Position numbers and translations under genes: made by a program. 64,000 bases of DNA, from assembly GCA_002254565.1 (NCBI GenBank), contig NJEG01000015.1:4726-68725 (forward strand), read 5' to 3'. This DNA comes from Candidatus Altiarchaeales archaeon ex4484_2 (GTDB taxonomy: Archaea > Altiarchaeota > Altiarchaeia > IMC4 > QMZM01). Every line of letters starts with the position of its first letter. Position 1 is the stretch's first letter. The notes under the pieces are model-generated. The model saw only the letters and a list, made by a program, of their open reading frames with translations, made no database searches and had not been told where the DNA came from. This document shows positions 22,630 to 63,407 of this stretch, piece after piece.

Positions 22630-22704
22630 GGGCCCGTAGCCTAGTCTGGATAGGGCACCGGACTTCTAATCCGGAGATCGTGGGTTCGAATCCCGCCGGG
22701 TCCG
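22630..22704 (+). tRNA. tRNA-Arg (TCT)
   Basis: GGGCCCGTAGCCTAGTCTGGATAGGGCACCGGACTTCTAATCCGGAGATCGTGGGTTCGAATCCCGCCGGGTCCG folds as a cloverleaf with anticodon loop CTTCTAA. Confidence 0.9.
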
Positions 22705-22772
22705 CTCCGCCCTTTCTTTTGTAAAAGAAAGGGTAGGTTACCCAAAGAAAACAATTACTTTGGGAAAAAAGT

Positions 22773-22861
22773 AAGGATCGGATGGGTTGCCTTTCCTGGT
22801 CAGGAGACTGGGTATAAGGGTGGGGAAAGCACCCTTACCTAGCAATCCCATCGGGTCCGCT
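22773..22861 (+). other. structured tRNA-linked module A. It ends in a second, 16/18-identical copy of the tRNA-Arg 3' end.
   Basis: Starts with AAGGATCGGATGGGTTG. Contains the hairpin AAGGGTG-GGGAAAG-CACCCTT. Ends with CCCTTA...AATCCCATCGGGTCCGCT, versus AATCCCGCCGGGTCCGCT in the tRNA. Confidence 0.6.
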
Positions 22862-22934
22862 ATCAAGCCCTTATCCCACCAGGGGGACTTAGAAAAGGCT
22901 TGATCCAAAAAAAAGAAAAAATAGGTGGTTTAGC

Positions 22935-24089
22935 ATGTTGGATAGGAGAGTTGTGTTCGATAACCTGAGAAGATATGATTTAGGTAAAGTCAAGGTTGGT
23001 GTGTTAGCCTCTCACTCGGCCCTGGATGTGGCTGATGGGGCAATAGAGGAAGGATTCAGGACTAAACTCTACTGCCAAAAAGGCAGAGAGAAAACATACA
23101 CGGACTACTTTAAATCCAGAAGAGTGAACGGGAAAGTGGTTAGGGGTGTGGTGGATGAATACAGGGTCTACGACAGATTCAAGGAGATAATGGAGGAAAA
23201 AGAGCAGGAGAATATGCTGGGAGAGAATATCCTGTTCGTGCCAAACCGGTCCTTCACATCATATGTAGACCTCACCAGGATAGAGGATGAATTCAGGATT
23301 CCAATGGTGGGCAGCAGGAACCTTCTCAGGAGCGAGGAGAGAGGTGAGGAAAAAGATTACTACTGGCTGCTGGAGAAAGCAGACCTCCCATACCCCAAAA
23401 GAATAGACGACCCGGTAGATATAGACGAGCTGGTGGTGGTGAAAATGCACCACGCGAAGAAGAAACTAGAGCGGGGATTTTTCACAGCCGCAAGCTATGA
23501 GGAATACAAGGAGAAATCAGGTAAGCTGCTGGATCAGGGTGTCATAACAGATGAACTACTAAAGAACGCGAGAATAGAGGAATACATCATCGGGCCAGTT
23601 TTCAACTTCGACTTCTTTTACTCGCCCATAGAGCAGGAGATGAACCCAATAGAGCTTTTGGGGGTGGACTGGCGCTTTGAGACCTCGCTGGACGGCCACG
23701 TCAGATTGCCTGCAACACAACAGTTAACCTTGAATGATAAGCAAAAAGTGCCAGAGTATACGGTATGCGGGCACAACACCGCAACAGTGAGGGAGAGCCT
23801 GCTGGAGAAGGGCTTCCAGCTTGCTGAGAAATACGTTAAGGCCACAAAGGAGTACTATAAGCCAGGGATTATCGGACCGTTCTGCCTTCAGACCTGTGTT
23901 GATAAAGACAATAACTTTTTCATATATGACGTAGCCCCACGGGTGGGGGGAGGTACAAACGTCCACATGTCAGTGGGTCATCCATACAGTAACACACTAT
24001 GGAGGACTAATGTTTCAACAGGCAGGAGGCTGGCTATGGAAATAAAGAGGGCTATAAAGGAGGATAGGGTGGAGGAGATAGTCACCTGA
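22935..24089 (+). CDS. purP: FAICAR synthetase PurP (5-formaminoimidazole-4-carboxamide ribonucleotide synthetase)
   Basis: ATP-grasp PurP family (VLASHSALDV, FVPNRSF, IIGPFCLQ). Confidence 0.85.
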   Translation: MLDRRVVFDNLRRYDLGKVKVGVLASHSALDVADGAIEEGFRTKLYCQKGREKTYTDYFKSRRVNGKVVRGVVDEYRVYDRFKEIMEEKEQENMLGENILFVPNRSFTSYVDLTRIEDEFRIPMVGSRNLLRSEERGEEKDYYWLLEKADLPYPKRIDDPVDIDELVVVKMHHAKKKLERGFFTAASYEEYKEKSGKLLDQGVITDELLKNARIEEYIIGPVFNFDFFYSPIEQEMNPIELLGVDWRFETSLDGHVRLPATQQLTLNDKQKVPEYTVCGHNTATVRESLLEKGFQLAEKYVKATKEYYKPGIIGPFCLQTCVDKDNNFFIYDVAPRVGGGTNVHMSVGHPYSNTLWRTNVSTGRRLAMEIKRAIKEDRVEEIVT

Positions 24090-24096
24090 GCAAGAA

Positions 24097-25170
24097 ATGG
24101 TTACCATAGGGGATATAGGTGAGGTCCTGGAGGGGTATGATCCAGATAATATAGAGATATGTACCTTGGGCAGTCATACCGCGTTGCAGATTACGAAGGG
24201 GGCAAGAGATGAAGGCTTCCGCAACCTACTGATATGCACCGAGAAATCAGCTAGATTCTATAGGCGTTGGCCTGTGGTGGATGACATAATAATAGTAGAC
24301 CACTACAGGGACATCCTAGACCAGGAAATGCAGGATATGCTACTTGCGAGGAATGCCGTTCTAATACCACACGGCTCATTTATAGAGTATGTTGGCGCAA
24401 AAAACATCATAGAAAAGCTGAAGGTTCCCATGTTAGGTAACAGAATGGTTCTTGAGTGGGAGTCCAACAGGAAGAAAGAAAAGAAGTGGTTAAAGAAATC
24501 AGCTTTGAAAATCCCGGGAGAATTCAAATCCCCGAAAGACATAGACAAACTGGTTATCATAAAATTCCCTGGAGCGAAAGGTGGGGAAGGATATTTCCTG
24601 GCTAAAGACGAGGAGGAATTCCATAGAAAGCTGGAAAAGATAAACCTGCCTGAGGATGTGAAAAAGGAATACACCATCCAGGAGTACGTTATAGGCACCA
24701 GGTTTTATCCACACTTTTTTTACTCTCCACTGGATGATGAGGTAGAGCTTTTGGGGATGGACATCAGGTACGAGTCCAACATAGACGGTCTTGCGAGGCT
24801 GCCTAATGTCATCCAGAAAGAGGTTGATGTTGAGCCATTGTATGTTGTCACAGGGAATCTGCCGGTTATACTGCGGGAGTCACTCCTGCCTGATCTGATG
24901 AAATTGGGCCGGAACCTTGTGGAATCATCCAAGAAGCTTTTTAAACCCGGGCTCATAGGGCCCTTTTGCGTGGAGATGATATGCACTCCAGAGCTGGAGT
25001 TCGTATGTTTCGAGATATCAGCGAGGATTGTTGCAGGAACCAACCTGTTCATACACGGATCAACCTACTCCAAGATACTTTATGATGAACCGATGAGCTG
25101 TGGCAGAAGAATCTGTAGGGAAATCAAAACAGCAGGGGAAAGAAATAAATTAGATAAAGTAGTATATTAG
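24097..25170 (+). CDS. purP: PurP paralog
   Basis: Same family (TLGSHTALQI, LIPHGSFIEY, LIGPFCVE), in tandem with the first copy. Confidence 0.8.
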   Translation: MVTIGDIGEVLEGYDPDNIEICTLGSHTALQITKGARDEGFRNLLICTEKSARFYRRWPVVDDIIIVDHYRDILDQEMQDMLLARNAVLIPHGSFIEYVGAKNIIEKLKVPMLGNRMVLEWESNRKKEKKWLKKSALKIPGEFKSPKDIDKLVIIKFPGAKGGEGYFLAKDEEEFHRKLEKINLPEDVKKEYTIQEYVIGTRFYPHFFYSPLDDEVELLGMDIRYESNIDGLARLPNVIQKEVDVEPLYVVTGNLPVILRESLLPDLMKLGRNLVESSKKLFKPGLIGPFCVEMICTPELEFVCFEISARIVAGTNLFIHGSTYSKILYDEPMSCGRRICREIKTAGERNKLDKVVY

Positions 25171-58246: not shown

Positions 58247-58406
58247 GGGGCTGTGGGGTAACCAGGCATCCTAGCGGGCTCCAGAATCAATGGAGCGCTG
58301 ATTTCCCGCAGGGGAGAGATGACGAAAAACAGGTCAGAGACCGATAAGTCTTGAAGAAACTGGATGGAGTGACCTGCCGATGGGGGTTCAAATCCCTCCA
58401 GCCCCA
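58247..58406 (+). tRNA. tRNA-Trp (CCA) with an ~87-nt intron at the canonical 37/38 position (intron ~58285-58371)
   Basis: Exon 1 is GGGGCTGTGGGGTAACCAGGCATCCTAGCGGGCTCCAG. Exon 2 is ACCTGCCGATGGGGGTTCAAATCCCTCCAGCCCCA. The anticodon stem GCGGG/CCTGC forms only after intron removal. Confidence 0.85.
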
Positions 58407-58440
58407 AGACTTTATTTTTTTATATGATAGGTGATAGAGA

Positions 58441-62284: not shown

Positions 62285-63172
62285 TCAGAGGTTTTGATAG
62301 ATATCTAATATGGAACCGAAGTTAAAAATATCGAACAGTGTTCTCTGCCTTTCCACCACCCTAACTATATCGGGCTCACCCCATATCTCTCCAAGCTCTT
62401 TCGCTTTATCAACCGCATCGTCCATGTTCCCCAGCTGATCAATCAGTCCGTAGTCTCTTGCATCGCTCCCCAGATAGATTGAGCCATCCGAGAGATTTCT
62501 TGTGTAAGAGTAGGAGAGGTTTCTGTTGGCTGCCACATCAGAGATGAAATTATGGTATATTTTATCCACCATGTGCTTTAGTTCCTCTTTTTCTCCCTCC
62601 TCCATAGGCCGGTAGGGGCTGCCTATATCTTTACTATCCCCTGATTTAATCACGGTTACATTAATCCCAAGTTTATCATATAATCCATAGTAGTGCTGTA
62701 GGCTCATTATAACACCTATGCTACCTGTCATGGAGTCCTGGTATGCTATAATCCAGTCTGCTGCTGAGGCAGCATAGTATGCTCCGGAGGCACCTACCTC
62801 ACCTATCCTTGCAACAACAGGTTTCCTGGTTTCCCTGACAGCCTCCATGAGTTCCCGGCTGGCTGAAACACCACCCCCGCCGGAGTTTATGTCCAGTATC
62901 ACTGCCTTGATTTCGTTGCTGGAGTCAGCGTACTCCAGTTTTCTCTTGATGTCGTCTACCTTGGCGCATGCTGGCACACCGGTCAGGAAGCTTCCGCTGC
63001 ATCCCTCCATCGTTATCTGGCCCTTCACGGGAATAACCAGGATTTTCTGACCTACCAGGGGCAACTGGTTCAGGTCCATCAACTCATCTACCATGAAATA
63101 CACCCCAACAGCTCCCAGAATAAGGAAACAAAGCATACCAGCAGCCAATAAAATCTTCCACCTGCGTTCCAT
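62285..63172 (-). CDS. sppA: signal peptide peptidase SppA (S49 family, 36K type)
   Basis: An N-terminal TM helix and S49 motifs (INSGGGGVSAS, GASGAYY, GSIGV). Confidence 0.85.
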   Translation of the reverse strand: MERRWKILLAAGMLCFLILGAVGVYFMVDELMDLNQLPLVGQKILVIPVKGQITMEGCSGSFLTGVPACAKVDDIKRKLEYADSSNEIKAVILDINSGGGGVSASRELMEAVRETRKPVVARIGEVGASGAYYAASAADWIIAYQDSMTGSIGVIMSLQHYYGLYDKLGINVTVIKSGDSKDIGSPYRPMEEGEKEELKHMVDKIYHNFISDVAANRNLSYSYTRNLSDGSIYLGSDARDYGLIDQLGNMDDAVDKAKELGEIWGEPDIVRVVERQRTLFDIFNFGSILDIYQNL

Positions 63173-63198
63173 TTTTTTTTATTTGAAGTCTTGGTTTT

Positions 63199-63312
63199 AT
63201 GCGGCTGTCGGGATTTGAACATAAGGGCGCCTTCCCCGCCCTCGCTCATCCCCCAGGGGGGATGGCGCGCAGAGAGCTTTGCTCTCTCGCGTATCAACCC
63301 ATCCGAGCCTTT
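63199..63312 (-). other. structured tRNA-linked module B. It ends in a perfect 22-nt second copy of the tRNA-Gly 3' end.
   Basis: On the minus strand it starts AAGGCTCGGATGGGTTG. It contains GC-rich hairpins, including GAGGGCG-GGGAAGG-CGCCCTT. It ends CCCTTATGTTCAAATCCCGACAGCCGCAT, and 63199-63220 equals 63333-63354. Confidence 0.6.
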
Positions 63313-63333
63313 CTCTCTCAAGAGATAGTTCGA

Positions 63334-63407
63334 TGCGGCTGTCGGGATTTGAACCCGAGTCGCTGGCTTGGCAAGCCAGAGTGATAACCAGACTACACTA
63401 CAGCCGC
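63334..63407 (-). tRNA. tRNA-Gly (GCC)
   Basis: The reverse complement GCGGCTGTAGTGTAGTCTGGTTATCACTCTGGCTTGCCAAGCCAGCGACTCGGGTTCAAATCCCGACAGCCGCA folds as a cloverleaf with anticodon loop TTGCCAA. Confidence 0.9.

Follow-up and report, generated by a model that had tools for sequence, protein, structure and literature searches.

The T loop of transfer RNA (tRNA) genes is said to be a sublocation at which tyrosine-recombinase integrases act, as Williams reportedly set out in 2002, and non-canonical bulge-helix-bulge tRNA introns, together with an "intron transposition" in Archaea, were reportedly described by Fujishima et al. in 2010. Archaeal elements that integrate in tRNA genes and duplicate their attachment site (att) have been documented (PMC3293823, PMC5495485), and archaeal tRNA introns have been reviewed (PMC4090602, PMC4033280). 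Casposons produce duplications of 14–35 nt at tRNA 3′ ends and leave solo terminal inverted repeats (TIRs) as remnants (PMC4779613). In addition, AT-rich genomes contain GC-rich palindromic mini-elements, i.e., the GC clusters of yeast mitochondria (PMC4478555) and the Rickettsia palindromic elements and miniature transposable elements with inverted repeats (MITEs) (PMC11602168). Here, we compare with these systems two hairpin-rich modules that stand next to a tRNA-Arg and a tRNA-Gly gene of the uncultivated Candidatus Altiarchaeales archaeon ex4484_2, on a 64,000-nt stretch of contig NJEG01000015.1 that will be called the window.

Our preferred reading, which we judge to be about evenly balanced between right and wrong, is that these modules are miniature, non-autonomous, non-coding insertions at an att-like site in the T loop. 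Each of them is bracketed by two copies of the 3′ part of its tRNA gene (Table 1). The repeat at tRNA-Arg, whose copies are spaced 155 nt apart, was seen correctly in the initial annotation of this DNA; the one at tRNA-Gly (ATGCGGCTGTCGGGATTTGAAC) is exact and longer.

A dispersed repeat family next to tRNA genes

The Arg and Gly modules are homologous, and the annotation was right in placing a second copy after tRNA-Gly. Both contain the 17-nt motif AAGG[A/C]TCGGATGGGTTG, and their terminal hairpins differ by a T:A versus a C:G pair. What is common to both is a core of about 39 nt, in which GGNNCGGAWGGGTTGATA abuts AGGGCGGGGAAGGCGCCCTTA, with a hairpin of 10 bp and a 7-nt loop. Related loci, obtained from a genome scan, a metagenome scan, or the retrieval of purP homologues, are given labels of the form L0xx. 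The core is present with two extra hairpins inserted between motif and hairpin in the window Gly module and in L009, the sequences of the pair in L009 being unrelated to those of the window Gly pair.

It is extremely unlikely that chance, or ordinary intergenic hairpins, account for the resemblance of the loci and for the tRNA-end repeats. The 12-mer TCGGATGGGTTG, allowed up to two mismatches, is found 10 times in the window where 4.7 occurrences are expected, which speaks for such an explanation, but the hairpin pattern AGGGYGGGRAARGCRCCCTTA, expected 0.00 times in shuffled versions of the window, occurs exactly twice, both times beside a tRNA, dozens of near-identical copies exist elsewhere, and the repeats are exact over 20–24 nt. 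Chance is thereby refuted, in line with what the annotation had argued.

The strict scan with two motifs, which covered one genome per species, returned one true relative (L007, at the orthologous tRNA-Arg/purP locus) and seven chance matches in bacterial or coding DNA. The metagenome scan with the hairpin pattern gave 59 loci, about 55 of them genuine and about four being chance matches in GC-rich coding DNA. The minimal cores align as 41 distinct copies with a mean column identity of 92%, and a covariance model, termed R1, recovers about 50 full copies above 59 bits in the metagenome loci and, within the window, only the two already known. That the two loci belong to a larger sequence family, as had been supposed, is thus a solid result. 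Moreover, the core hairpin is a real, constrained stem, because the pair 18–42 covaries: it is A-U in 25 and G-C in seven distinct copies and is never unpaired, which none of 500 shuffles reach. According to R1, the Arg module consists of an orphan 5′ motif followed by a degenerate complete core, and cores are also serially added or nested in L018 and L069.

In L069 (1150–1245), a 48-nt unit made of spacer and core is tandemly duplicated directly upstream of a protein gene, with junctions inside the 3′ strand of the preceding hairpin, like those of the nested copy at L018 2820–2886. In L055 (341–383), the loop of the core hairpin is flipped and reads GGGAAGG instead of CCTTCCC relative to the 5′ motif, as if the stretch between the arms of the perfect 7-bp inverted repeat had been inverted. 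An identical 25-mer, CCTTAGTCGTCGGCTAACTCCGACC, is found at L010 2900–2925, in the insert downstream of tRNA-Arg, and, inverted, at L062 6318–6342, just upstream of tRNA-Trp; it represents a second small repeat family at tRNA flanks.

A comparison of the window and 16 loci with Rfam gave, at the gathering threshold, tRNA and rRNA matches only. With E values up to 10, the tRNA and mascRNA-menRNA matches fell on real tRNAs and not on the modules, which are overlapped solely by weak, below-threshold matches to unrelated families. No description of the core was found in the literature on tRNA introns of Altiarchaeota, non-canonical introns of DPANN, MITEs in archaeal tRNA genes, and att remnants, so that, as far as Rfam and this literature go, the family is undescribed, as the annotation had believed. 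Box C/D or H/ACA guide RNAs, K-turns, and a promoter inside the core were dropped by eye, the consensus elements being absent.

The family is divided between two lineages and two contexts. Seven loci (L018, L070, L059, L048, L062, L036, and L071) are from Altiarchaeota, with proteins 60–89% identical to those of the window. Each has the core in sense orientation between an upstream tRNA gene (Gly, Trp, or Ser) and a downstream, co-oriented open reading frame (ORF), which in L062 and L036 begins only 3–8 nt after the core. A copy of the tRNA 3′ end often follows the core in these loci, and the same arrangement exists at other tRNAs (L035, L056, L040, and L071).

The remaining loci have 34–50% GC, their proteins are 26–45% identical to those of the window, and the named proteins closest to an arginyl-tRNA synthetase from one of these loci, at about 40% identity, come from DPANN-type and other archaea; the loci are from a deeply divergent, low-GC archaeal lineage that co-occurs with Altiarchaeota. 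In this second lineage the core is always antisense to the RNA gene, and it occupies four settings: the T loop, in many tRNAs; the intron position in the anticodon loop of tRNA-Gln(CUG); the position directly after tRNA 3′ ends; and, beside LAGLIDADG ORFs, the apex of a hairpin within a 23S rRNA intron.

Six simple T-loop introns of the second lineage read, on the tRNA strand, T-stem, UUCR, AAA, UAAGGGCGCCUUCCCCGCCCUUAUCAACCCWUCCGNNCC, 0–15 nt, NGAA, ANU, and the 3′ strand of the T-stem. Drawn by hand, they would form a bulge-helix-bulge (T stem, UUCR:NGAA, bulges AA|A and AN|U) that yields a canonical UUCRAAU loop and places the intron at 59/60. Unconstrained folding of the six gave no bulge-helix-bulge, and in it the 5′ strand of the T-stem pairs with AACCC of the intron. 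In L020, L027, L034, L044, L058, L017, L031, and L038, introns with an antisense core split tRNA genes within the T loop, apparently at 59/60; these genes often carry further introns, and none was detected by ARAGORN. Complex introns of this lineage also hold pseudo 3′ ends of other tRNAs (GGAAAUCCUUCCCUGCACCC). Large insertions are present in its 23S and 16S rRNA genes (L023, 1–2325; L031, 455–1718; L024, L037, and L063), some with LAGLIDADG ORFs and one 23S intron with the core at its hairpin tip, and the rRNA of L023 takes up 2325 nt to cover about 800 positions of the model.

Filled and empty alleles at the tRNA-Arg/purP site

The tRNA-Arg/purP site was compared in eight further Altiarchaeota lineages, retrieved through purP homologues, and it is polymorphic beyond doubt. 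One insertion is common to the window, L007, and L009. L010 has a different insert of 60 nt with 24-nt repeats, L073 one of 113 nt with a 20-nt repeat, and L079 a hairpin-rich one of 235 nt with a 21-nt repeat; L011 and L077/L078 are empty, tRNA-Arg being followed directly by purP. This site has accordingly received at least four independent insertions of 60–235 nt, which differ in content and have repeats of 18–24 nt. All long repeats start within the T loop and stop 0–5 nt past the tRNA gene, and those at the tRNA-Gly site measure 22 nt in the window, 20 nt in L018, and 16 nt in L070. Among the tRNA-Arg/purP inserts, only that of the window type contains the core; therefore, the acquisition of inserts that regenerate the tRNA 3′ end is not peculiar to the core but general in these genomes, with the core as one cargo among others. 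The annotation had raised the absence of the module from the orthologous tRNA-Arg of relatives, which L011 and L077 display, and of the three explanations that it offered, a miniature element that targets tRNA 3′ ends and duplicates its target fits best, in view of the empty sites and of the differing inserts with repeats of their own.

These inserts lack coding capacity, and synteny of the genes around them is preserved in the eight relatives, so that, in keeping with the annotation, the region does not lie inside remnants of an integrase gene. It is unlikely, in our view, that the modules are what is left of larger elements once integrated in the tRNA genes, be it att scars of tyrosine integrases or solo terminal repeats of casposons. 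Direct repeats from the T loop to the tRNA end are a signature of tRNA-integrating elements, the duplications and solo-TIR remnants of casposons are of the same kind (PMC4779613), and L073 has a 31-nt fragment of the tRNA-Arg 5′ part upstream of the gene, as in the Caldiarchaeum case (PMC3293823). However, all four tRNA-Arg inserts and all tRNA-Gly inserts are at most 235 nt long, an outcome that random internal deletion of kb-sized elements would not produce every time; gene fragments are absent from the inserts, no full-length element with the same ends was found in the loci or in IMG/VR, and the cores are conserved and not decaying.

The 5′ fragment in L073 lies at 585–615, about 130 nt upstream of the complete gene (753–829), reaches up to the anticodon stem, and is present besides the 3′ copy. 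In L075/L076 (1277–1396), the 3′ strand of the tRNA-Arg anticodon stem is interrupted by a 38-nt palindromic module (CAAACTTTTAAAAAAGTTTGATC...) flanked by ATCCGG repeats, and ARAGORN calls this interrupted gene a tmRNA, which in an archaeon is surely false. Nearly the same 38-nt module forms the tRNA trailer in L073.

Table 1. Features of the two tRNA loci of the window
Feature	Position	Strand	Evidence
tRNA-Arg(TCT), complete, uninterrupted	22630-22705	+	ARAGORN; Rfam tRNA 69.1 bits
Arg direct repeat, copy 1, AATCCCGCCGGGTCCGCT, from T-loop A58 to 1-2 nt beyond the tRNA end	22689-22706	+	Repeat search
Arg insert, left part: two hairpins, very strongly conserved	22707-22774	+	Inverted-repeat search
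Orphan copy of the family 5′ motif, GGATCGGATGGGTTGC	22775-22790	+	Exact 12-mer TCGGATGGGTTG common with 63295-63306; partial R1 match 22773-22792
Degenerate but complete core: diverged 5′ motif CTGGTCAGGAgacTGGGTA and hairpin	22796-22839	+	R1 positions 1-43, 26.0 bits, E = 9e-5
Arg direct repeat, copy 2, AATCCCATCGGGTCCGCT, displaced tRNA-Arg 3′ end	22844-22861	+	Repeat search; 16/18
Hairpin ATCAAGCC...GGCTTGAT after the second repeat copy	22862-22904	+	Inverted-repeat search
Gly direct repeat, copy 2, displaced tRNA-Gly 3′ end	63199-63220	-	Repeat search; 22/22
Conserved hairpin AGGGCGGGGAAGGCGCCCTTA, equal to the family consensus	63222-63242	-	Hairpin pattern; R1 26.6 bits
Two variable hairpins between 5′ motif and conserved hairpin	63243-63292	-	Fold; 47/49 identical to L018
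5′ motif GGCTCGGATGGGTTGAT, equal to the family consensus	63293-63309	-	Zero mismatches to GGNNCGGAWGGGTTGAT; R1 match 63261-63311
Trailer with small hairpin TCTCTC/GAGAGA	63310-63332	-	About neutral rate; 17/24 versus L018
Gly direct repeat, copy 1, from T loop to 1 nt beyond the tRNA end, 22 nt	63333-63354	-	Repeat search
tRNA-Gly(GCC), complete	63334-63407	-	ARAGORN; Rfam 68.7 bits

The chain of hairpins that the annotation listed in the Arg module is present in full. It includes the arms CCCTTTCTTTT/AAAAGAAAGGG and TTACCCAAAGAAA/TTACTTTGGGAAA, and the core hairpin AAGGGTG-GGGAAAG-CACCCTT at 22816–22836 (pattern match 22817–22837); the left part consists of an 11-bp perfect hairpin with TTTCTTTT at 22710–22733 and a second one at 22738–22767. 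The hairpin that follows the second repeat copy is probably the original tRNA-Arg trailer; it is found also in L007 and L009 and, in a similar form, in L040. When the left, middle, and right pieces of the Arg module were compared by BLAST with all loci, they matched only orthologues. A small ORF (22738–22908, minus strand, 56 aa) was rejected because L007 has a 19-nt deletion inside it and its conservation is of a non-coding kind. The flanking genes in the window are two purP paralogues, ELP3, S17e, and sppA, and the purP product equals or closely resembles proteins named Candidatus Altiarchaeota. The purP paralogues (384 and 357 aa) stand in tandem at 22935–25170 on the plus strand, the first beginning at 22935, downstream of the Arg module, and their order is kept in all Altiarchaeota loci examined.

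At the other locus, sppA begins at 63172, 27 nt beyond the second copy of the Gly repeat. In L059/L048, sppA is preceded by tRNA-Trp and a core instead of the tRNA-Gly and module of the window (58247–58440 and 63172–63407 being the window segments compared), which indicates a rearrangement with breakpoints at tRNA/module junctions. Neither tRNA-His nor tRNA-Trp has a module in the window. Box C/D elements are known in euryarchaeal tRNA-Trp introns, and the window tRNA-Trp(CCA) gene (58247–58406, plus strand; Rfam 36.7 bits, missed by ARAGORN) contains an intron of about 89 nt with box C/D-like elements (CTGA, GATGACGA), an arrangement also seen in L059 and L062.

Structure, origin, and present role of the modules

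The segment 22773–22861 folds with the closing helix that the annotation had drawn (−43.2 kcal/mol, z = −3.9, none of 200 shuffles as good), and the Gly module folds at −54.4 kcal/mol (z = −3.1). The annotation took the helix for a conserved acceptor/T-arm minihelix in which two substitutions, GC to AT, restore pairing. This compensation is true of the window sequence but is not general, as L007 reads CCCACC and lacks a T, and in L009 CCCGCC is retained and the motif is GAAAGGG. When 5′ motif and 3′ copy are paired in the tRNA register, 11 of 12 pairs form in the window and 10 of 12 in L007, and the number drops to 7–8 of 12, three of them being the invariant GGG:CCC, in seven other copies (L009, the window Gly module, L070, L018, L035, L056, and L040). 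Furthermore, the motif of the Gly locus would pair better with the Arg copy (10 pairs) than with its own (7), and the variants GGCAC, GGTTC, GGCTC, and GGATC of the 5′ motif occur independently of the host tRNA. Since the pairs are not kept and the motif is not matched to its own tRNA copy, a tRNA-like minihelix was rejected as a feature of the family, and the modules are not a conserved tRNA mimic.

Conservation is nevertheless high in other parts of the modules. The stretch 22706–22814, with the left hairpins and the orphan and degenerate motifs, is identical to L007 at 109 of 109 positions, while tRNA-Arg itself has three changes and the third codon positions of the flanking genes are 73–76% identical. 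For the left part (22707–22774), the counts are 69/69 with L007 and 66/68 with L009, to be set against 73–84% at flanking third codon positions. At the Gly locus, the 5′ motif and the variable hairpins agree with L018 at 64 of 67 positions versus 73% at sppA third positions, and evolution looks neutral in the trailer (17/24) and in the nucleotides ahead of the sppA start (12/26). In the Arg module, by contrast, the conserved hairpin and the 3′ copy have diverged (21/24 and 18/22), and in L007 the hairpin has two uncompensated stem changes and the 3′ copy decays differently (AA-CCCACCGGGTCCGCT). Because they are conserved far above synonymous sites, parts of both modules are probably functional now, under purifying selection at the level of the host, as judged from these comparisons; given the divergence of hairpin and 3′ copy, this selection would act on module parts and not on the tRNA-like helix.

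These observations bear on a somewhat unlikely alternative, namely that the modules are functional structured RNAs or cis-elements of the tRNA transcript, either a released small RNA or an element for processing or stability by which the tRNA is kept apart from the purP or sppA mRNA, the 3′-end copy being part of the RNA. The conservation values just given, the folds that beat shuffles, and the one perfectly covarying pair are in its favor, as is the fact that the window Gly module and L009 have variable hairpins in the same place that are unrelated in sequence and are still hairpins. So are the fixed sense orientation of the core in Altiarchaeota, with a co-oriented ORF behind it, and the lack of a T-run between tRNA-Gly and sppA. 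What keeps this explanation in contention is that neither the lineage-fixed orientation nor the conservation among orthologs is explained by purely selfish DNA. On the other hand, the helix by which it was defined, of 5′ motif and 3′ copy, is not conserved; at the Arg locus, conservation is lowest in the hairpin and the 3′ copy, with uncompensated changes and a deletion in L007; and the module is dispensable, as attested by the empty sites of L011 and L077 and by the window tRNA-His and tRNA-Trp genes. In the second lineage, moreover, the core is on the strand opposite to the RNA genes, Rfam gives no match, and stem substitutions produce G-U pairs on either the sense or the antisense strand, depending on the copy. 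Of the tRNA-mimicking, co-transcribed RNA considered in the annotation, what survives is the clear constraint on some parts, and what does not is the mimicry.

To return to insertion at the T loop, the mechanism that we infer would run as follows. A short insertion would enter the tRNA gene at the T loop and bring its own copy of the tRNA 3′ part, so that the gene stays intact, while the displaced original 3′ end would remain downstream as a direct repeat, comparable to attL/attR. Its cargo includes the core of about 39 nt from a repeat family dispersed in Altiarchaeota and in the second lineage, where, on the other strand, it makes up the body of T-loop and anticodon-loop tRNA introns. Insertion may proceed through site-specific recombination at the T-arm, or through a staggered cut that extends from the T loop to slightly beyond the gene, with the recombinase or nuclease presumably supplied in trans. 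After insertion, parts of the module would come under host selection and would probably now have a role in the tRNA trailer or in the downstream gene's leader. In their classical geometry, tyrosine-recombinase core sites have a 5-bp inverted repeat with a 7-nt spacer between its arms; the T-arm shows this geometry, and the family hairpin, with 7-bp inverted repeats around 7 nt, has a comparable one.

Several points weigh against this reading. The 25 most frequent Pfam families of the 92 ORFs that lie up to 1.5 kb from cores include no recurrent integrase, transposase, or Cas1, and the inserts of 60–160 bp are too short to form double-stranded circles in a classical integrase synapsis. The isolated cores have neither a consistent target duplication nor terminal inverted repeats. 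Scans of IMG/VR with the hairpin, the core junction, and the tRNA-Arg 3′ 20-mer gave 0 matches, plasmids and unbinned DNA not being covered. Finally, a DNA insertion indifferent to orientation does not predict that the core is sense in Altiarchaeota and antisense in the second lineage, and conservation of orthologous copies is unexpected for a purely selfish or neutral insert.

A broader proposal, which we consider improbable, would unite the two lineages through a mobile module specific to the T-arm. It would be the body of a spliceable intron in the second lineage and would be inserted together with a replacement tRNA 3′ end in Altiarchaeota, where "tRNA end – insert – tRNA end" units would grow serially, formally like repeat-spacer-repeat arrays. 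Such units might be made by a trans-acting enzyme, be it a recombinase of the T loop, an integrase resembling a casposase, or an RNA-mediated route, and would since have been co-opted as trailer or leader elements.

The family is compact and searchable (R1; 39-nt core), and it is a marker of tRNA-gene rearrangements that took place recently in uncultivated archaea. It connects two processes that are usually treated apart, the duplication of tRNA 3′ ends by insertion and the gain of non-canonical tRNA introns, and the natural filled and empty alleles at one locus offer a handle on the mechanism of insertion. There are also practical consequences: tRNA finders miss interrupted genes, as ARAGORN found none in most loci and made one tmRNA call, and tRNA 3′-end copies downstream of a gene can be mistaken for integrated elements. 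In addition, the strong conservation of module parts may point to a function in Altiarchaeota tRNA trailers or mRNA leaders.

Comparison with known systems

The arrangement resembles att duplications, casposon remnants, transposed tRNA introns, and palindromic mini-elements, and it departs from each of them in at least one defining respect. In a more distant comparison, with tRNA-like RNAs of the mascRNA type, the window segment 22775–22861 can be drawn as a 12-bp acceptor/T-like helix with 11 of 12 pairs, but other members do not keep this helix, a T-loop consensus is lacking, and the Rfam matches to tRNA and mascRNA do not fall on the module.

As in att duplications, the tRNA gene is left intact and restored by a direct repeat, here of 16–24 nt, that runs from the T loop to the 3′ end or just past it, the site is empty in some relatives, and a 5′ fragment is present once (L073). 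The difference is in what lies between the repeats, which here is only 60–235 nt of non-coding, hairpin-rich DNA. Neither an integrase gene nor a fragment of one was found between or beside them, where the flanks are syntenic housekeeping genes, and no matching free element was found in IMG/VR.

With casposons, the modules have in common a tRNA-end duplication within the 14–35-nt range, short non-coding remnants, and tandem accumulation. Here, instead, repeat length varies (16–24 nt) at one and the same site, the left boundary is always in the T loop, no inverted terminal repeats were seen, and no Cas1 was seen among the 25 most frequent Pfam families near cores. The duplications at the tRNA-Arg site measure 18, 20, 21, and 24 nt and could stem from different elements.

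The likeness to archaeal tRNA introns comes from the second lineage, in which the core makes up the body of T-loop and anticodon-loop introns, interrupts the mature RNA, and is found as near-identical introns in many tRNA genes. In the window, by contrast, both tRNAs are complete, the module lies outside the mature tRNA and in the opposite orientation, it has a long flanking repeat, and inspection of its ends revealed no bulge-helix-bulge.

Finally, the modules differ from GC clusters, Rickettsia palindromes, and MITEs in that neither the insert ends nor the isolated cores have terminal inverted repeats or a short target duplication of fixed length. They are like these mini-elements in being non-coding, short, GC-rich hairpins that are dispersed in tens of near-identical copies, also inside RNA genes, and what sets them apart within this company is their specific association with the tRNA T-arm.

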